A stretch of 33,468 bases of DNA from Pseudomonadota bacterium (GCA_039818545.1 JBCBTR010000001.1:1-33468); one strand, 5' to 3'. Positions 9,364 to 22,268 are shown, counted from the first letter of the stretch. Made by a program: numbers and translations. The notes: a model not told the origin generated them from the letters alone.

Positions 9364-9438
9364 GCTCCCTTCGTCTATCGGTTAGGACGCCAGGTTTTCA
9401 ACCTGGAAAGAGGGGTTCGATTCCCCTAGGGAGTGCCA
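9364..9438 (+). tRNA. tRNA-Glu (anticodon UUC)
   Basis: 75-nt cloverleaf folded by hand. Acceptor stem GCTCCCT/AGGGAGT, anticodon stem CCAGG/CCTGG with loop TTTTCAA, T-arm AGGGG-TTCGATT-CCCCT, encoded CCA. Confidence 0.9.
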
Positions 9439-11050: not shown

Positions 11051-11127
<77 letters not shown>

Positions 11128-11476: not shown

Positions 11477-11553
11477 GGCCCCTTAGCTCAACTGGATAGA
11501 GCACCGGACTTCTAATCCGACGGTTGCAGGTTCAAGTCCTGCAGGGGTCGCCA
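11477..11553 (+). tRNA. tRNA-Arg (anticodon UCU)
   Basis: 77-nt cloverleaf. Acceptor GGCCCCT/AGGGGTC (one G-U pair), D-arm GCTC-AACTGGATA-GAGC, anticodon loop CTTCTAA, T-arm GCAGG-TTCAAGT-CCTGC, encoded CCA. Confidence 0.88.
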
Positions 11554-14557: not shown

Positions 14558-14620
14558 GGATCACCTGTGTAGACTGCCTCAAAGCTAGGCACCGCCGCTG
14601 TGAAAGACAACCACCCGAAG

Positions 14621-14646
14621 TGATCCGATACGCTGTGTCTCACGTA
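14621..14646 (+). promoter_or_regulatory. Candidate ECF sigma-E (ChrR-group) promoter, TGATCC-N16-CGTA
   Basis: TGATCC at 14621-14626, a 16-nt spacer, then CGTA at 14643-14646, which ends 31 nt upstream of the GTG start at 14678. The same architecture occurs on the minus strand at 22268-22243. Confidence 0.6.
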
Positions 14647-14677
14647 ATGAGGGCAGATAATCGCAGGGCTATGCAAA

Positions 14678-15226
14678 GTGTTTAAAGACCCAACCTACGA
14701 CGCCTTCATGCTCGACCACGCTTCGCGGTCGTTATCACCGGGGTTGAACGTCCTCGCCGACGCGCATTTGGCGTTAAACGAGGCCGGCCGGGACCGCAGC
14801 GACATCTGGGCCGCTATTGGCGGCGTGCTGCTGGAGAATGTCGATGGTTCGCCTCATGCAAGCCGCTTCCAACGGCAGGCCATGCCGTACCGAACGGACG
14901 AGACAAGCGCATCCATTCTGGACGCGAATCTAGACGACCTGCCTTGGAAAACAGGGTTTTCGGGCGTTGAGTACGCCCGCGGACGCACGCCGCACACCAA
15001 GTTTATGCGTCTCGATGCCGGCAAGTCCGCTCCAAAACACCGCCACAGCGCGCTTGAGGCAACGCTTGTCCTGAAGGGTACACTGTCGGACGGCGAGCAT
15101 ACCTATGAGGTGGGGGAGATTGCATTCGGCGTGCCCGGCGAGGTGCACAAACCGATGGCCGTGGGGAACGAAACCTGTGTCTGCTTCGTTGCACAAGACA
15201 GGAAACCATTCTGGAGATTGAGCTAA
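14678..15226 (+). CDS. ChrR-like anti-sigma/cupin protein lacking the zinc-binding HxxxCxxC motif
   Basis: 182 aa with a GTG start. The N-terminal region aligns without gaps to my recollection of the ChrR anti-sigma domain, with AHLALNEAG in place of H-x3-C-x2-C. The C-terminal cupin motif is G-KSAPK-H-R-H-SAL-E-ATLVLK-G. Confidence 0.7.
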   Translation: MFKDPTYDAFMLDHASRSLSPGLNVLADAHLALNEAGRDRSDIWAAIGGVLLENVDGSPHASRFQRQAMPYRTDETSASILDANLDDLPWKTGFSGVEYARGRTPHTKFMRLDAGKSAPKHRHSALEATLVLKGTLSDGEHTYEVGEIAFGVPGEVHKPMAVGNETCVCFVAQDRKPFWRLS

Positions 15227-15894
15227 TGAGATATCTCGCATCCATCGCTTTTGCTGCCGCCATCGCCCAGACGGCCGTCGCGGATAGCGCGCCGGCACCC
15301 GACCCATGGACTCCAAGCGCTGGCGACCAAATCTCCTTCGAAGTGCTCCGCAAAGGCAAACCCTTCGGCGATCACGTTCTCAGCTTTGACAAAGCCGAGG
15401 ACGGCACATTGCAGGTTACGACCGATGTGGACCTGAAGGCCGGCCTCGGACCGATCACCGTTTTCCGATATTCGCTGGACAGCACCGAGACGTGGCAGGA
15501 CGGCAAACTGGTCTCATTGTCTGGCCAGACCAATGACGATGGGGACAAAACCCGCGTCACGGCCGAACTGGATGGCGATGCATTGTCGGTCGACGGAACG
15601 GCATACTCGGGCGATGCCCCGACAGACATCATTCCGTCGAGCCATTGGAACATCAAACAGATGTATGGCGACGTGATGCTGTCCACCGAAGATGGCGAGT
15701 TGCTCGACATTACAGTTGAACAGATCGGCCGCGAGAATGTTTCAATCGGTGATCAGTCGATCCCGGCGGACCACTACCGTCTGACGTCCGATATTACCGT
15801 AGACCTCTGGTATGATGATGCGGGTCGATGGGTGAAACTCGCCTTCGAAGCACGCGGACAGACGATCGAGTATCGGCTCCGCCAGCTCTACTAG
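15226..15894 (+). CDS. Exported protein of unknown function
   Basis: 222 aa. Signal peptide MRYLASIAFAAAIAQTAVA|D and a beta-rich, acidic sequence. Its start overlaps the upstream stop (TAATG) and its stop abuts the next ATG (TAGATG). Confidence 0.65.
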   Translation: MRYLASIAFAAAIAQTAVADSAPAPDPWTPSAGDQISFEVLRKGKPFGDHVLSFDKAEDGTLQVTTDVDLKAGLGPITVFRYSLDSTETWQDGKLVSLSGQTNDDGDKTRVTAELDGDALSVDGTAYSGDAPTDIIPSSHWNIKQMYGDVMLSTEDGELLDITVEQIGRENVSIGDQSIPADHYRLTSDITVDLWYDDAGRWVKLAFEARGQTIEYRLRQLY

Positions 15895-17424
15895 ATGGCG
15901 ACGTTACGACTGGTCCTTGGCGACCAGCTATCGATGAACCTCTCCAGCCTGTCGGATATCGACAAGCAAGCCGACCTGATTGTGATGGCGGAGGTGTCGG
16001 AAGAGGCCACCTACGTCCGACATCACAAGAAGAAGATCGCCTTCCTGTTCGCCGCCATGCGTCAGCACGCCAAGGCTCTCAGGGATGAAGGCTACAACGT
16101 CCGCTACCAGAAGATCACCGACGACAATCCGGCCGATAGTTTGAGGGCCGTCGTTGAACGGTGTCTGGCTGACTCAGCTGAATATGAACGTGTGGTGGTG
16201 ACCAAGCCCGGCGAATGGCGGCTGCTTGAAGAGATGATGTCCTGGTGCGAGGCGTTCGACTGCGAGGTCGAGCTTCGGGACGATGATCGTTTCCTCTGTT
16301 CCGAAGAGATGTTCAACGAGTGGGCCGACGGGCGGAAAGAACTCCGAATGGAGTACTTCTACCGGGAGATACGGCGAAAGACCGACCTCCTGATGGAAGG
16401 CGACAAGCCCGCCGGCGGCGAGTGGAACTACGATCAGGAGAACAGGAAGAAACTCCCCAAGTCCAAGTCTACACCCTCAAGATGGTTCACCAGCCCCGAC
16501 GACATCGACAAGGACGCGCTCGCCGATGTCGCCGATCGCTTCGACAATCACTTTGGCGATCTCGAAGGCTTCTCCTTCGCAACCACGCGTGAGGGCGCAG
16601 AAGAAGCCCGCGATCATTTCATGGAGAACATCCTTCCCGGCTTCGGGGACTATCAGGACGCCATGGCGATGGACGAGCCATGGATGTGGCACTCAATCCT
16701 GTCGATTTACCTGAATTGCGGCTTGCTGGAGCCGCTCGATCTTTGTCAGCGCGCTGAGAAGGAGTGGAAGAAGGATCGTGCCCCGCTCAACGCTGTCGAG
16801 GGCTTCATCCGGCAGATCATTGGCTGGCGGGAATACGTCCGGGGCGTCTACTGGCTGAAGATGCCGGACTACAAAGACACCAACGCACTGAAGGCCTCAC
16901 GCGACTTGCCCGATTTCTACTGGACCGGCGAGACGGACATGACATGCCTCTCGCAGGCCGTCCGGCAGACGCGCGACAATGCTTATGCACATCACATTCA
17001 AAGGCTGATGATCACTGGCAACTTCGCGCTCATCGCAGGCGTGCATCCCGACCACGTCAATGAGTGGTATCTGGCCGTCTATGCGGATGCCTATGAATGG
17101 GTCGAACTGCCAAACACGCATGGGATGGCGATCTACGCAGATGGCGGTGTCGTGGCGTCGAAGCCCTACGCCTCAAGCGGGGCCTACATCAATCGGATGT
17201 CTGACTACTGCTCGAACTGCGCCTATGATGTTCGCAAGAAGACGGGCGAGGGGGCCTGCCCGTTCAATTATCTATACTGGGACTTCATCGCCCGGAACGA
17301 AGATCAGCTCCGATCGAATGGCCGCATGGGCCTCATCTACTCAAATCTCGACAAGAAGAACGATGACGAACGAGAGGAGATCAGCGCAAGCGCCGAAACT
17401 TTTCTCAAATCGATCGGGATCTAG
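15895..17424 (+). CDS. FeS-cluster bacterial cryptochrome/(6-4) photolyase family protein (CryB/PhrB-like)
   Basis: 509 aa. N-terminus LRLVLGDQL...YVRHHKKKIAFLFAAMRQHA is typical of the photolyase-related COG3046 family. Four Cys have the PhrB-like spacing: C in DMTCLSQ, then C-x2-C-x12-C in YCSNCAYDVRKKTGEGAC. Confidence 0.88.
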   Translation: MATLRLVLGDQLSMNLSSLSDIDKQADLIVMAEVSEEATYVRHHKKKIAFLFAAMRQHAKALRDEGYNVRYQKITDDNPADSLRAVVERCLADSAEYERVVVTKPGEWRLLEEMMSWCEAFDCEVELRDDDRFLCSEEMFNEWADGRKELRMEYFYREIRRKTDLLMEGDKPAGGEWNYDQENRKKLPKSKSTPSRWFTSPDDIDKDALADVADRFDNHFGDLEGFSFATTREGAEEARDHFMENILPGFGDYQDAMAMDEPWMWHSILSIYLNCGLLEPLDLCQRAEKEWKKDRAPLNAVEGFIRQIIGWREYVRGVYWLKMPDYKDTNALKASRDLPDFYWTGETDMTCLSQAVRQTRDNAYAHHIQRLMITGNFALIAGVHPDHVNEWYLAVYADAYEWVELPNTHGMAIYADGGVVASKPYASSGAYINRMSDYCSNCAYDVRKKTGEGACPFNYLYWDFIARNEDQLRSNGRMGLIYSNLDKKNDDEREEISASAETFLKSIGI

Positions 17425-18641
17425 GCTTTCGCCAGCTGGAACTGACCGACATTGATCCGCCCATCCAGAAAGCCAGCCTCGCAATAGCTCAGATAGAAGT
17501 TCCACATCTGCTTGAACGCGAAGTCGAAGCCGAGCCCTTCCAGACGGTCCCATTTGTCATTGAATGAGCGCCGCCATTCCGCGCAGGTGCGCGCATAATC
17601 CTGACCGAACAAGCTCGCGCCATCATAGCGCAGGCCAGCCGCCGCGACCTGATCCTTCAATGCCGCTTCGCTGGGCAACATTCCGCCCGGAAAGATGTAG
17701 CGCTGGATAAAGTCCGCACGCTTGCGGTAGCGAGGGAACAACTTGTCATCAATGGTAATGATCTGGAGCGCCGCCCGGCCTCCGTCTTTCAGGACTTCCG
17801 CGACCTTTGCGAAGTAACTCGGCCAGTAACGTTCCCCGACCGCCTCAAACATCTCGATGGAAGCAACCCCGTCATAAGACCCGGTATGATCACGATAGTC
17901 CTCAAGCCGGATCTCAACCTGATCGTTCAGGCCCTGTTCGAACATTCTCTTCTGCGCGTACTCACGTTGCGAAGGGGAGATCGTCAGGCAGGTCACTTTG
18001 GAGCCGCGCTCCTTGGCGGCATATTCGGCAAAGCCGCCCCAGCCGCATCCGATCTCCAGAATATTGCTTCCCGGTCCCGCCGATATTCCATCGCAGATAC
18101 CGGCATATTTGGACTGCTGGCCTTGTTCGAGCGACTGATTGGGGTTGTCGAACCGCGCGGATGAGTAGGTCATGCTGGGGTCCAGCCACGAGGCGTAGAA
18201 CTCGTTCCCAAGGTCATAATGGGCCGTGATGTTCCGCCGTGCACCGCTCTTGCTGTTCCGGTTGAACATATGACGCAACAGGTTCATCGCACGGACGAGC
18301 GCGCCGCCAACGGCGAGCTGTCCCGCAGCTTCAAAGTTCGCCGAGAAGAACCGCAATACGGTCGTGAGATCCGGTGTTTCCCACTCGCCATCCATGTAGG
18401 ACTCGGCAAAGCCGACATCGCCGCCCGCCATGGCGCGCTTGGCGACCGCGTAGTCGAGGAATGTCAGCTTTGCATGCGGACCATTGACGCCATGATCAAA
18501 GAGCACCACGCGCTGGTCCGGCAGGGTGACCTCGAGTGATCCGCGTCGCGCGCGCAGCAGAGCCAGAGCGGCAAGCTTGAAGCTGGTGGGGACATCGTCC
18601 AGTTGTCGGATCGTCCTGGTGTTCGCAATGATGACGCTCAT
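17421..18641 (-). CDS. Cyclopropane-fatty-acyl-phospholipid synthase-like SAM-dependent methyltransferase
   Basis: 406 aa. SAM motif ILEIGCGWGGFAEYAA and the CMAS-family C-terminus (YLSYCEAGF). A 4-nt overlap with the upstream DUF1365 gene. Confidence 0.88.
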   Translation of the reverse strand: MSVIIANTRTIRQLDDVPTSFKLAALALLRARRGSLEVTLPDQRVVLFDHGVNGPHAKLTFLDYAVAKRAMAGGDVGFAESYMDGEWETPDLTTVLRFFSANFEAAGQLAVGGALVRAMNLLRHMFNRNSKSGARRNITAHYDLGNEFYASWLDPSMTYSSARFDNPNQSLEQGQQSKYAGICDGISAGPGSNILEIGCGWGGFAEYAAKERGSKVTCLTISPSQREYAQKRMFEQGLNDQVEIRLEDYRDHTGSYDGVASIEMFEAVGERYWPSYFAKVAEVLKDGGRAALQIITIDDKLFPRYRKRADFIQRYIFPGGMLPSEAALKDQVAAAGLRYDGASLFGQDYARTCAEWRRSFNDKWDRLEGLGFDFAFKQMWNFYLSYCEAGFLDGRINVGQFQLAKA

Positions 18642-19429
18642 GCCGCCGGTTCCTTGGTCTTGCCCATCGCCACGGTCACCTCATTCGAGGGCGGCGTTGG
18701 TTTTGAGTGATATTTTGCACCTTTCAACCACAACTTTAAAGCCTCCCAATGAATTCCGGCGGTGACGCCGATGGAGGAGAAGGGTTGGGAAAGGGCAGTT
18801 TTCAGAAAATTGGCGCTGCTTGCAGGCATCCGACGCGTCTGGATCGTCGCCATATGGGTCCGCGCATCGCTGCCGACGCTGTCGACGACAAGGTGGACGC
18901 CTTTGTCTGGCGGTCGGAGGGTAAAGCGGTACTGGCCCGACACATCGAAGAAGGGCGATACGTGGAAGACTTTGTCGGCCTCGTGCCGGCTCACTTCGTC
19001 TGATGCCGCAGCCGCCACGTAAGAATGCGTTTCCCCGAACGTGTTCTTCACTTCATAGATCACGCCTTTCACGTCGCCATTGAGATCGTAGCCGAACCAG
19101 AGCGAGATCGGCGCGAACTTGTAGAACATGTGACGCGGAAAGGTGGTGAGCCGGATTGCGCCGCCTTCAAGGTCAACGCCCGCCTCATTGAACTTGGCTT
19201 CCGCCCACTCGCGAAGGGAAAGCGCGCCGCGAGCGCCATGATCCTTTTCGGCAAACGAGAACAGTCCGGGCCCGTTCACCGAGAAGAGAGGAGAGACCTT
19301 GCTGGCGTCGTCCAGCCGGTCGATGTCGATATCGATCATGAACAGCCTGTACTTGAAGCGCTGCTCGAACGGCACGAAACGCTTGTGGGTCGTTTCGCCG
19401 GTGAGAAGGGTAAGAGGGGCGTCGGACAT
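18638..19429 (-). CDS. DUF1365-family protein
   Basis: Contains GETTHKRFVPFEQRFKYRLFMIDIDIDRLD, characteristic of DUF1365. The ATG at 19429 forms a TAATG overlap with the upstream stop, and the 28-codon track extension would overlap the upstream gene. Confidence 0.85.
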   Translation of the reverse strand: MSDAPLTLLTGETTHKRFVPFEQRFKYRLFMIDIDIDRLDDASKVSPLFSVNGPGLFSFAEKDHGARGALSLREWAEAKFNEAGVDLEGGAIRLTTFPRHMFYKFAPISLWFGYDLNGDVKGVIYEVKNTFGETHSYVAAAASDEVSRHEADKVFHVSPFFDVSGQYRFTLRPPDKGVHLVVDSVGSDARTHMATIQTRRMPASSANFLKTALSQPFSSIGVTAGIHWEALKLWLKGAKYHSKPTPPSNEVTVAMGKTKEPAA

Positions 19430-20751
19430 TAGCTGGTGGCCTGTGCCCGTCCGGTGCTCGCATCGACTTCGCGGGTTTTTGGAGTGGCGATCTCCACGCC
19501 GTGTGGTGTCCATGGGACGGCCCCGCCTAGCGATAACGCCGCCGACAGGCCCGACTTCAATCCATCCTCATGGAAGCCGCTGCCCATCCAGGCTCCGGCA
19601 AGCCACAGCCCGTCTTCGCCCTGAACGCGCTTCAGTGTGCGTACAGCAGCCTCCGCTGCGCCGTCGAACTGAGGATGATCGAAAACGAAAGAACTGAACG
19701 TCAGCTCTTCGGCAGGCGGAGTGTCCGGGTTGAGGGTCACGAAAAGAGGGGCTCGGTGGTCGATCGATTGCAATGTGTTCATCCAGTATGACAGGCAGAT
19801 ATCGCCGCTTTCCTGTTTTAACACGTTCCATGCCGCCCAAGCCGCTCGCTTGCGCGGCATCAAGGCGGGATCACGGTGCAGGTAAATCTGGTTGGGTCGG
19901 TACTGGGCGGAGCCGAGCGTAAACTGCCGATCCGCAAAGCTTTCGTCGAGCATCGCAGCCGCCTGATCGGAATGGACCGCCAGAACGACATCATCGAAGA
20001 CTTCCTGCTTTCCGTTCTCGAAGGTCAGGCGCACCTTGTCGCCGAACCGGGACACAGTCTCAACGCCCATGCCTGACTTTAGCCTATCGCCAAGCTCGGC
20101 CTTCAAGGCCGTAACATAAGACTGGCTGCCATCTTTGACGGTGCGCCACTTCGGGCGCTCCTTGTGCATCAGGCGGTGGTTCTCGAAGAATTTGAAGAAG
20201 CTGAGGGCCGGATAATCAAGAAGCCTGTCCTCGGGCGTGGACCAGATCGCTGCGCCCATGGGGAGAATGTAGTTCCGCCGGAACGTCTCATCGAAGCCAT
20301 GGCGATCCAGCCATGCCCCGAGAGACACTTCGCCGACCTCGCCAGCGTCCAGCTCCTGCCGGACCGTATCATTGAAACGCAGGATCGTGCGCCAGAACCG
20401 GTGAAAGCGCGGGCTGAGGAGATTTCGCTTCTGCGCGAAAAACCCTCTTGCCGTCGACGCCCACTCATAGCCGTCGGGATCGGACACAGCGAAACTCATG
20501 TCGCTGGCCTGTGTTTCGACATCCAGTGCATCGAACAGCGCGATCAGGTTGGGATAGTTGTGAGCATTGTAGACGATGAACCCGACATCGACATTGATCG
20601 GGCCAAAGCCCGGATAGTCGATTGTCTTCGTGTTCGAATGGCCGCCAAAGCGATCGCGTTTCTCGAACAGGGTCACGTCGGCGGTATCCTTCAGCGCCCA
20701 AGCGGCGCTCAACCCGGAAATCCCGGACCCGACAATGGCTACTCTCTTCAT
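19429..20751 (-). CDS. FAD-dependent oxidoreductase (amine-oxidase / phytoene-desaturase-like, COG2907 type)
   Basis: 440 aa. N-terminal dinucleotide fold VAIVGSGISGLSAAWAL...FEKRDRFGGH. A 4-nt ATGA-type overlap with the photolyase stop. Confidence 0.85.
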   Translation of the reverse strand: MKRVAIVGSGISGLSAAWALKDTADVTLFEKRDRFGGHSNTKTIDYPGFGPINVDVGFIVYNAHNYPNLIALFDALDVETQASDMSFAVSDPDGYEWASTARGFFAQKRNLLSPRFHRFWRTILRFNDTVRQELDAGEVGEVSLGAWLDRHGFDETFRRNYILPMGAAIWSTPEDRLLDYPALSFFKFFENHRLMHKERPKWRTVKDGSQSYVTALKAELGDRLKSGMGVETVSRFGDKVRLTFENGKQEVFDDVVLAVHSDQAAAMLDESFADRQFTLGSAQYRPNQIYLHRDPALMPRKRAAWAAWNVLKQESGDICLSYWMNTLQSIDHRAPLFVTLNPDTPPAEELTFSSFVFDHPQFDGAAEAAVRTLKRVQGEDGLWLAGAWMGSGFHEDGLKSGLSAALSLGGAVPWTPHGVEIATPKTREVDASTGRAQATS

Positions 20752-22208
20752 GCTGCGTCCCGTTGCTTCTTGAGTGTCTCATAGGCTTCAAGCGCACGCT
20801 CGCGGCCTGTCTTGTGCTCGACCATGGCGTGAGGGTAGGTCTCCCCAAGCGTCACGCCAGCGTCTGAAAGCACGCCTTCGGGGGCCTCCCATGGCGCGTG
20901 AATATGTTTGGTGGGCAGGTCTGCCAGCTCTGGCACCCATTGGCGGACATAGTCGCCCGTCTCGTCGAACTTCTGGCCCTGCGTGATCGGGTTGAAGACC
21001 CGGAAATAGGGAGCCGCGTCAGCACCTGAGCCTGCAGTCCACTGCCAGCTCGCACTGTTCGCGGCAGGGTCCGCATCCACAAGCGTATCCCAGAACCAGT
21101 CCTCGCCGCGCTGCCAGTGCACCAGCAGGTGCTTCGTCAGGAAAGACGCAACGATCATCCGAACCCGATTGTGCATCCAACCCGTATGCCAGAGCTGTCG
21201 CATACCGGCATCGACGATCGGATAGCCCGTCAGGCCTTTAGTCCACTTGGAGTAGCCCTCATCATCATCGCGCCAGGGCATGTTGTCGAAGTCGGAATTG
21301 TAGTTTTCCGTCGCAAGATCAGGATTGTGGAACAGCTGCACATAAGAAAACTCGCGCCAGCCGATCTCTGACAGGAACACCTGCGCAGACGCCTCATTGA
21401 CATCACCCGCCTCGATCCGGGCCTGCGTCGCCCGCCAGATCTGCGCCGGACCGATCTCGCCGAAGTGCAAGTGAGGCGACAGGCCAGAGGTGCCATCGGA
21501 CACGTCGGGCCGGTTTCGGTCATCCTTGTACTCGTTGACCGGTCCCTCAAGGAAGGCAGTCAGCCGCTTGCGCGCACCGGCCTCGCCGGGTGTCCACGCG
21601 TCCTCAAATCCAGTTGCCCAGTTCGGCGCTGTCGGCAGCAGGCCCCAGTCCGGAAGATCATCGGAAGCCACATCAAGCTGCGCCAGCTCTTTCGGCTTTT
21701 TCGACGGTGCTGGCGGCGTGTAGCAGGCTCGAACAGCTTTCCAGTAGGGCGTGAAAACACGGTAGTGACCACCGGACCCGGTTTCGATGGTCCACGGTTC
21801 CGTCAGCAGCGACCCGTTGAAGCTCTCAACCTCAACGTCGTTTTCTTTCAGTGAAGCTTTCAGGTTGGAATCAACCTCGCGCTCGGCTGCTCCATATCGC
21901 CGATTCCAGAATACCGCGCCGGCTCCGGTGTCCTCGACAACGGACATCAATACCTCGTGCGCCTGTCCGCGCCGCAGGATCAAACGCCCGCCAAGGCTTT
22001 CAATACCGTGTGAGAGCGATTCCAGTGACTTGTGCAGCCACCACTTCGATGCGCCGCCGGGTTCGCGAAACGCCAGGTTCTGTTCGAAAACAAAGAGACA
22101 GACCACCGGACGGCCACTGTTTACGGCCGCCTCCAGAGCGGGGTTATCGTCCAGCCTCAGATCATTTCGGAACCAGACAAGCGCTGGTGTCGATTCATTA
22201 CCCGGCAA
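20748..22208 (-). CDS. phr: Deoxyribodipyrimidine (CPD) photolyase
   Basis: Contains ALVWFRNDLRLDDNPAL, WREF and TGYPIVDAGMRQLWHTGWMHNRVRMIVASFL. I place the start at TTG 22208, with SD GAGGGGAG 6 nt upstream, because the ATG at 22259 lies inside the predicted promoter. Confidence 0.88.
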   Translation of the reverse strand: MPGNESTPALVWFRNDLRLDDNPALEAAVNSGRPVVCLFVFEQNLAFREPGGASKWWLHKSLESLSHGIESLGGRLILRRGQAHEVLMSVVEDTGAGAVFWNRRYGAAEREVDSNLKASLKENDVEVESFNGSLLTEPWTIETGSGGHYRVFTPYWKAVRACYTPPAPSKKPKELAQLDVASDDLPDWGLLPTAPNWATGFEDAWTPGEAGARKRLTAFLEGPVNEYKDDRNRPDVSDGTSGLSPHLHFGEIGPAQIWRATQARIEAGDVNEASAQVFLSEIGWREFSYVQLFHNPDLATENYNSDFDNMPWRDDDEGYSKWTKGLTGYPIVDAGMRQLWHTGWMHNRVRMIVASFLTKHLLVHWQRGEDWFWDTLVDADPAANSASWQWTAGSGADAAPYFRVFNPITQGQKFDETGDYVRQWVPELADLPTKHIHAPWEAPEGVLSDAGVTLGETYPHAMVEHKTGRERALEAYETLKKQRDAA

Positions 22209-22242
22209 GGATGGCTCCCCTCGAAGCGACGTTTGTTGTAGA

Positions 22243-22268
22243 TACGCGCCGCAAAGCATTGTGGATCA
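22243..22268 (-). promoter_or_regulatory. Candidate ECF sigma-E (ChrR-group) promoter, TGATCC-N16-CGTA
   Basis: The minus strand reads TGATCC (22268-22263), ACAATGCTTTGCGGCG (16 nt), then CGTA (22246-22243). This is 34 nt upstream of the TTG start I propose for phr. Confidence 0.6.

Follow-up and report, generated by a model that had tools for sequence, protein, structure and literature searches.

The closest described relatives of the locus reported here are the regulons of RpoE (sigma-E), an extracytoplasmic function (ECF) sigma factor of the ECF11 type whose anti-sigma factor is ChrR. In Rhodobacter sphaeroides, rpoE and chrR form one autoregulated operon, ChrR is a zinc-binding anti-sigma factor, and the core regulon includes, besides rpoE-chrR itself, photolyase and furan fatty acid genes (PMC6852236); the promoters that RpoE uses have been written TGATCC(N15)GCGTA (PMC5036791). 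For PSPTO_1043, an RpoE(Rsp)-type sigma factor of Pseudomonas syringae, chromatin immunoprecipitation sequencing and quantitative reverse transcription PCR gave the consensus TGATCCnnnnnnnnnnnnnnnnCGTA, i.e., TGATCC-N16-CGTA (PMC5507510), and a related consensus, TGATC...CGTAT, was given for Vibrio cholerae (PMC5241685). Here we describe two sites of this form in a stretch of 33,468 nucleotides (33.5 kb) from a Pseudomonadota bacterium (GCA_039818545.1, JBCBTR010000001.1:1-33468), which is called the window throughout, and we propose that both sites, P1 and P2, are promoters for an ECF11-type sigma factor (RpoE/sigma-E, with ChrR as its anti-sigma factor) that is encoded elsewhere in the same genome, that of a Hyphomonadaceae bacterium. 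We consider this explanation likely. The first-pass annotation of this DNA had read the sites in this way, and the computational results support it. By phylogeny the closest studied system is sigma-E of Caulobacter crescentus (order Caulobacterales); singlet oxygen, organic hydroperoxide, UV-A and cadmium are the conditions that it reportedly responds to.

When both strands of the window were searched for TGATCC-N16-CGTA exactly two exact matches were found, P1 before the gene of a ChrR-like protein on the plus strand and P2 before a cyclobutane pyrimidine dimer (CPD) photolyase gene on the minus strand (Table 1). The first-pass annotation of this DNA had described them as two identical promoters. 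Both sites and their coordinates were confirmed, but the identity is restricted to the 10 fixed positions and the spacer sequences differ. These 10 bases and the spacing between the two boxes are those of the published ECF11 consensus, and the form in which the annotation had given that consensus is the form found in the R. sphaeroides (PMC5036791) and P. syringae (PMC5507510) papers. Both sites are intergenic and each is oriented toward a gene at promoter distance; from the end of CGTA there are 31 nt to the GTG start (14678) of the ChrR-like gene at P1 and 34 nt to the TTG start (22208) of the photolyase gene at P2, and the sequence bears out both distances as first read. TGATCC alone occurs 33 times in the window and not about 25 times as had been counted by eye, and it remains true that none of the other occurrences has CGTA at a distance of 16 nt. 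No extra site appeared in the window when spacers of 15-18 nt were searched, when one mismatch was allowed, or when the 8-base core ATCC-N16-CGTA was searched for alone. With 100 dinucleotide-preserving shuffles of the window the number of matches expected by chance was 0.04 per window, where roughly 0.06 had been estimated before, and none of the 100 shuffles reached two.

The longest open reading frame (ORF) for the CPD photolyase starts at ATG 22259 and would overlap P2. However, the Pfam domain begins only at residue 26 of this long ORF and the relatives align from TTG 22208, and therefore the TTG, which is the start that the first-pass annotation had proposed, is the better start; it is also preceded by a GGGGAG ribosome-binding site. 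Automatic ORF calling, which gives ATG 22259, would mask P2.

The ChrR-like protein of the window has no exact match on record and its close relatives are few; 8 were obtained at first and 125 when a profile was used. From these searches 80 loci, one genome per species, were picked by homology of the ChrR-like protein alone (34-84% identity). Nearly all of these are labelled Hyphomonadaceae (Henriciella, Hyphomonas) or unclassified Pseudomonadota/Alphaproteobacteria metagenome-assembled genomes (MAGs), and the closest is a Hyphomonadaceae MAG whose ChrR-like protein is 84% identical. An exact TGATCC-N16-CGTA lies just upstream of the ChrR-like gene in 77 of the 80 loci; the other 3 read TcATCC or acATCC in its place, with 1-2 mismatches that are confined to bases 1-2. 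Among 75 unique P1 promoters (the window and L010-L089) no position of the spacer or the flanks is more than 73% conserved, TGATCC is followed by a purine in every case (A 61%, G 39%), and CGTA is followed by A in 55%. The regions upstream of the photolyase gene were compared by a scan anchored on the aligned starts. Here 43 loci including the window were readable, 16 with an exact match, 8 with one mismatch and 19 with two, and ATCC-N16-CGTA was present in all 43, with 28-39 nt between it and the aligned start. The TGATCC of the photolyase promoter is replaced by AAATCC or ACATCC in many relatives, Henriciella for the most part (L019, L022, L023, L025-L027, L037 and others, largely Henriciella or unclassified MAGs). 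CGTA, its distance of 16 nt and a portion of the spacer (GATC...AAAGTGTGT) are retained there, and the -35 box looks weaker or modified in a manner specific to the lineage. Judged from these alignments, the conservation pattern was left by a promoter of two boxes at a fixed spacing and not by drift or chance.

Since just 10 positions are specified, one could hold that two 10-base matches have co-occurred by chance and are without function. Against this, the window would be expected to hold 0.04 matches and two were reached in no shuffle, both sites are intergenic and correctly oriented, and 77 of 80 loci, retrieved independently, have the motif in place, with an estimated chance rate of about 1e-4 per 100-nt upstream region. 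By the shuffles and by the conservation at both promoters chance is effectively refuted. The same conservation bears on whether TGATCC...CGTA could instead serve a DNA-binding regulator as its operator (a repressor, say, of the light-responsive LitR/MerR type or of another). MerR-family regulators control photolyase/cfa clusters in some bacteria, V. cholerae among them (PMC5241685), and one relative (L006) has a MerR gene about 3 kb away. The element, however, is asymmetric, with two different short boxes at a fixed distance of 16 nt and a free spacer between them, and the boxes always point toward the gene, with a promoter-like distance to its start codon; moreover, no regulator gene adjoins either operon in the window, nor is one consistently found beside them in the relatives. 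An operator is a very unlikely explanation.

A positive control was provided by L091, a locus in which an ECF sigma gene is followed by the gene of a ChrR relative (P0282) and TGATCC-N16-CGTA stands upstream of the pair. The nearest match of the L091 sigma factor is R. sphaeroides RpoE (2Q1Z_A, E 6.7e-47 vs 2.9e-18 for the next match). P0282 directly follows an ECF sigma gene in L092 as well, and it is more distant from the ChrR-like protein of the window. Thus, in these data too, the motif travels with ECF11 sigma/ChrR operons.

Table 1. Features of the window, with positions counted from its first nucleotide, and the sigma/ChrR pair of L091
Feature	Position	Strand	Remarks
P1, predicted ECF11-type promoter	14621..14646	+	TGATCC GATACGCTGTGTCTCA CGTA; -35 14621-14626, -10 14643-14646, 16-nt spacer
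P2, predicted ECF11-type promoter	22243..22268	-	TGATCC ACAATGCTTTGCGGCG CGTA; -35 22268-22263, -10 22246-22243, 16-nt spacer
ChrR-like protein, 182 aa	14678..15226	+	Pfam Cupin_7; GTG start
DUF6134 protein, 222 aa	15226..15894	+	Pfam DUF6134, E 2e-56
FeS-BCP type (6-4) photolyase, PhrB/CryB-like, 509 aa	15895..17424	+	Pfam DPRP; PDB matches
UfaM-like S-adenosylmethionine (SAM)-dependent fatty-acyl methylase (cyclopropane fatty acid (CFA)-synthase family), 406 aa	17421..18641	-	Pfam CMAS, E 1e-77
UfaO-like DUF1365 protein, 263 aa, ATG 19429	18638..19429	-	Pfam DUF1365, E 2e-67
UfaD-like FAD amine-oxidase-family desaturase, 440 aa	19429..20751	-	Pfam Amino_oxidase + NAD_binding_8
Class III CPD photolyase, PhrA-like, 486 aa, TTG 22208	20748..22208	-	Pfam DNA_photolyase + FAD_binding_7
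tRNA-Glu-TTC	9364-9438		Rfam
tRNA-Pro-TGG	11051-11127		Rfam
tRNA-Arg-TCT	11477-11553		Rfam
ECF sigma/ChrR pair of L091	L091 861-2396		TGATCC-N16-CGTA upstream

The genes behind the two sites were identified by Pfam, NCBIfam and PDB sequence searches, which agree with the gene calls of the first-pass annotation. On the plus strand the order is chrR-like, DUF6134, (6-4) photolyase, and on the minus strand it is CPD photolyase, ufaD-like, ufaO-like, ufaM-like. Adjacent genes on each strand abut or overlap by 1-4 nt; the DUF6134 start overlaps the ChrR-like stop, and the ufaO-like ATG overlaps the end of the upstream ufaD-like gene, in both cases as TAATG. This arrangement supports two operons, within each of which the genes are probably translationally coupled. 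The ufaO-like start is further supported by the ortholog in L001, which was also called at 263 aa.

In the report on furan fatty acid synthesis (PMC7380195), UfaM (RSP2144) is the CFA-synthase-like methylase of the pathway, UfaD (RSP1091) is an amine-oxidase-like flavoprotein that acts as a flavin desaturase, and UfaO (RSP1090) is a DUF1365 protein. The CMAS, Amino_oxidase and DUF1365 genes of the window sit in one overlapping operon and are members of the UfaM, UfaD and UfaO families, respectively, and the minus operon, as predicted from its sequence, is a photolyase together with a complete UfaD-UfaO-UfaM furan fatty acid set. The UfaM-like protein scores under the NCBIfam Cfa equivalog cut-offs. 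The gene content of this operon matches the published core sigma-E regulon, where photolyase, UfaM, UfaO and UfaD are all found (PMC5507510, PMC6852236, PMC7380195), as the first-pass annotation had supposed for the genes downstream of the motif. R. sphaeroides thus shares with the window the promoter consensus and the core targets photolyase, RSP2144, RSP1091 and RSP1090, and in both a ChrR-fold protein stands under this type of promoter. They differ in that the R. sphaeroides targets are split (phrB-cfaS and RSP1091-1087) and are fused into one operon in the window, and in that the ChrR-like gene of the window is without an adjacent sigma gene.

The nearest counterpart of the minus operon is in P. 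syringae DC3000, where an operon that begins with phrB also has an amine oxidase gene, an RSP1090/UfaO homologue (annotated as hypothetical) and cfa, and has a sigma-dependent promoter that reads aGATCC-N16-CGTA (PMC5507510). P. syringae, however, is a gammaproteobacterium, its operon also has a short-chain dehydrogenase (SDR) and other genes, the sigma gene PSPTO_1043 adjoins the ChrR gene PSPTO_1042, and no operon of ChrR-like, DUF6134 and (6-4) photolyase genes is described for it (PMC5507510). In Rhodopseudomonas palustris RPA2570 (ufaO) adjoins RPA2569 (ufaM), as the UfaO-like and UfaM-like genes do here, and RPA2571-RPA2568 are treated as one gene block, for which, unlike the operon in the window, the available text mentions no photolyase (PMC7380195). 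Our search of the literature on ECF11 in Hyphomonadaceae gave nothing relevant. In the comparison with R. palustris we take RPA2571 to be the ufaD homologue.

The two photolyases were said to be of different classes, and the PDB matches agree. The best match of the CPD photolyase is 4U63_A (E 1.3e-164), the class III enzyme PhrA of Agrobacterium tumefaciens. The (6-4) photolyase, of the iron-sulfur (FeS) type, matched 9HNK (E 1e-192), A. tumefaciens PhrB 4DJA (E 2e-186) and R. sphaeroides CryB 3ZXS (E 5e-172) in phmmer searches, and four cysteines, one in 'dmtC' and three in 'sdyCsnC...gaCpfn', are conserved in its alignment with 9HNK. These cysteines are presumably ligands of an Fe-S cluster like that of PhrB, and we treat them as candidates. 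The A. tumefaciens enzymes PhrA and PhrB (4U63, 4DJA) are the closest to the photolyases of the window and show the same division of labour between CPD and (6-4) repair; we know of no sigma-E-type co-regulation or convergent arrangement of their genes. Unlike in the model systems, the CryB/PhrB-type photolyase of the window is directly behind a sigma-E-type promoter; we presume that cryB of R. sphaeroides is RpoHII-dependent.

The mechanism that we propose for the two operons rests on analogies in R. sphaeroides, C. crescentus, P. syringae and V. cholerae. When singlet oxygen, organic peroxide, UV-A or blue light causes photo-oxidative stress, sigma-E would be freed from its anti-sigma factor, the holoenzyme would touch the -35 box TGATCC and the -10 box CGTA, 16 nt apart, and transcription would start a few nt downstream of CGTA and give short leaders of roughly 22-28 nt. 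From P1 the transcript would carry chrR-like, DUF6134 and (6-4) photolyase, and from P2 it would carry CPD photolyase, ufaD, ufaO and ufaM, the last three being the complete furan fatty acid pathway. The ChrR-like protein would probably feed back on the sigma factor.

Three findings weigh against this explanation. First, neither the window nor the 10-kb flanks of the ChrR-like gene in 88 related loci yielded an ECF11 sigma gene. The search was done with phmmer, first with E. coli RpoE and then with the RpoE(Rsp)-like sigma factor of L091, against all ORFs of at least 90 aa in the window and in the 88 loci. The statement of the first-pass annotation that the cognate rpoE gene is not in the window was upheld by these screens, and neither in the window nor in the 80 loci does a sigma gene adjoin the ChrR-like gene, whose invariant neighbour is the DUF6134 gene. 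Second, the ChrR-like protein scores under the NCBIfam ChrR cut-offs and is without the HxxxCxxC motif. Third, the degenerate -35 box (AAATCC) of the photolyase promoter in many Henriciella means that the strength of this promoter, or its dependence on the sigma factor, may vary by lineage. As for individual candidates, the sigma search gave a single ECF sigma match, in L082, which was rejected as the partner because its neighbours are not ChrR-like and its gene context is different.

The second of these findings has to be read together with what the ChrR-like protein is. It has an N-terminal anti-sigma-type helical domain and, at the C-terminus, a cupin (HxHxxxE...H), and the family profile aligns to residues 14-194 of R. 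sphaeroides ChrR (2Z2S_B) over both domains with E 1.5e-20. The AlphaFold2 model (pLDDT 89.6) has as its best match ChrR 2Q1Z_D from the complex with sigma-E (TM 0.72, 174 columns). In ChrR the metal ligands are H6, H31, C35 and C38, which hold the anti-sigma zinc, and the cupin residues HxHxxxE...H (PMC6852236). The cupin ligands H121, H123, E127 and H157 are invariant in the ChrR-like family. In the anti-sigma zinc site the equivalent of H31 alone is kept, and throughout the family C35 is replaced by N or S and C38 by G. With TIGR02451, the NCBIfam model for ChrR, the score was 65.1 bits vs a cut-off of 124.5, and the cupin part alone was matched. Thus, of the name that the first-pass annotation had given to this protein, the homology to ChrR stands over the full length and both domains, but the zinc motif and the linkage to a sigma gene do not, and with the sub-threshold score and the missing HxxxCxxC it is a putative anti-sigma factor. 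An exhaustive profile search gave 3115 ChrR relatives; among the representatives listed, HxxxCxxC was present in 0 of the best 45 (about E <= 1e-30 and better) and in 49 of the next 103. However, the ChrR proteins of L091 and L092, which stand beside a canonical ECF sigma factor, are also without HxxxCxxC, and since the zinc-less ChrR of L091 belongs to a canonical pair the loss of the cysteines does not exclude an anti-sigma function. By analogy with ChrR, the most likely role of the ChrR-like product would be to bind the same sigma factor that acts at P1 and so to give a sigma-induced negative feedback or reset.

These results raise the question whether the sigma factor is of the ECF11 type at all. 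It could be a non-ECF11 ECF sigma factor with convergent specificity, or a lineage-specific one for which the zinc-less ChrR-like protein is the unlinked anti-sigma factor, and there would then be no canonical rpoE-chrR. That no sigma gene is linked in the loci examined would fit this, and so would the fact that the motif is strictest before the ChrR-like gene (77 of 80 exact), as expected for the regulatory gene of an autoregulated ECF system; zinc-less ChrR proteins do partner adjacent ECF sigma factors, as L091 shows. On the other hand, the 10 bases and the spacing are the same as in the experimentally defined ECF11 consensus, the genes regulated are those of the ECF11 core regulon, the ChrR-like protein is specifically a ChrR homologue, and the sigma factor beside the zinc-less ChrR of L091 is itself RpoE(Rsp)-like. 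If the partner is unlinked but ECF11-like, this alternative merges into the explanation we favour. We therefore regard another kind of sigma factor as improbable and keep to an ECF11-type sigma-E encoded elsewhere in the genome.

In the related loci that have sequence there, the gene behind the ChrR-like gene is in essentially every case that of the DUF6134 protein, which is more conserved (about 55-60% identity) than its ChrR-like partner. Its translation, read by eye, has a signal-peptide-like segment at the N-terminus, and the protein is probably secreted. The model (pLDDT 89.9) is all-beta and barrel-like; its best PDB match is the DUF1849 protein 6NTR, with TM 0.58, and LolA/LppX-like matches in the fold search were weak. 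A function taken from the fold search was rejected, these matches being too weak, and no paper on DUF6134 was found in the literature searched. In the metagenomic locus L090 (2534-4691) the operon behind the motif consists of ChrR-like, DUF6134 and SDR genes; an SDR (RSP1087) is also listed in the sigma-E core regulon (PMC5507510).

What is described here is a known regulon, that of sigma-E/ChrR, in a new family of hosts, the Hyphomonadaceae. It differs from the model systems in that the genes are condensed into two converging operons, in that a (6-4) photolyase is behind a sigma-E-type promoter, and in that an orphan zinc-less ChrR paralogue is paired with a DUF6134 protein. Of these, the orphan pair may be the sole candidate for new biology. 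As a tentative suggestion, the pair could be a sigma-induced second anti-sigma module that tunes or resets ECF11, possibly with a periplasmic or lipid signal passing through DUF6134, or it could be the sole anti-sigma of a sigma factor encoded elsewhere. The constant unit behind the sigma-E-type promoter in Hyphomonadaceae would then be this translationally coupled pair in place of rpoE-chrR. If true, either would mean that the ECF sigma/anti-sigma architecture is split and has a new accessory component, and in either case the pair offers a testable handle on how a ChrR free of the zinc site acts and on the function of DUF6134. With the predicted promoters the sigma-E/ChrR singlet-oxygen regulon would be extended to marine, non-phototrophic Hyphomonadaceae (Henriciella, Hyphomonas and uncultured relatives), and its regulatory logic would be legible in the sequence: one type of sigma factor would co-induce CPD and (6-4) photorepair and the complete furan fatty acid pathway. 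The 80 loci with their near-invariant -35/-10 pair could also sharpen the ECF11 promoter model, to which they would possibly add the purine after TGATCC and the restriction of the indispensable part of the -35 box to ATCC upstream of the photolyase gene.

The converging operons meet at a CTAG palindrome (17421-17424), the (6-4) photolyase stop TAG being at 17422-17424 and the ufaM-like stop at 17423-17421. A 4-nt stop overlap or a gap of a few nt between the converging operons is also found in L010, L014, L015, L024, L026 and L032. There is no terminator hairpin at the junction, and the 6 terminator-like matches are fewer than the shuffle mean of 7.0. With the stops overlapping and no terminator-like hairpin between them, the two operons, which are predicted to be co-induced, would transcribe into each other.

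The first-pass annotation had called the two operons a photo-oxidative stress island. Two facing operons, both with the motif, are indeed present, but they should not be taken for an island in the sense of foreign acquisition. GC content is 0.56-0.61 across 14-23 kb and close to that of the flanks, the flanking genes are housekeeping genes (rpsI, argC, phaC, hom, glpX, recJ, a cysteine/sulfur operon, hldE, recG and mfd), and the neighbourhood is kept across Hyphomonadaceae; a horizontally acquired island was rejected on these grounds. In nearly every related locus that is long enough, a divergent PALP-rhodanese-cystathionine-lyase operon stands together with the ChrR-like/DUF6134 pair, and the (6-4) photolyase is confined to some lineages, as is the converging photolyase-ufaDOM operon. 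Compared across the loci, the layout is a modular, conserved Hyphomonadaceae neighbourhood. One MAG (P01_D01_bin.79) has two copies of the ChrR-like/DUF6134/ufa/photolyase neighbourhood, L013 and L018, the (6-4) photolyase and an exact motif being present in one, and the other, which is without the photolyase, reading acATCC; this could be a paralogous locus or a case of mixed strains. Elsewhere in the window an Rfam scan gave three tRNAs only, upstream of the sulfur-metabolism operon.

Finally, the minus strand has a sigma-70-like TTGTCT-N17-TAGCTT at 14582-14610 that stands back-to-back with P1, with 10 nt between the two -35 boxes, and faces the divergent PALP-rhodanese-cystathionine-lyase operon. 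The three enzymes of this operon presumably resemble the hydrogen-sulfide-producing trio CBS, CSE and 3-MST. TTGnnn-N17-TAnnnT (mostly TAGCnT) is found in 49 of 77 related loci, and the sigma-70-like boxes are the only conserved columns of the intergenic alignment besides the P1 motif.

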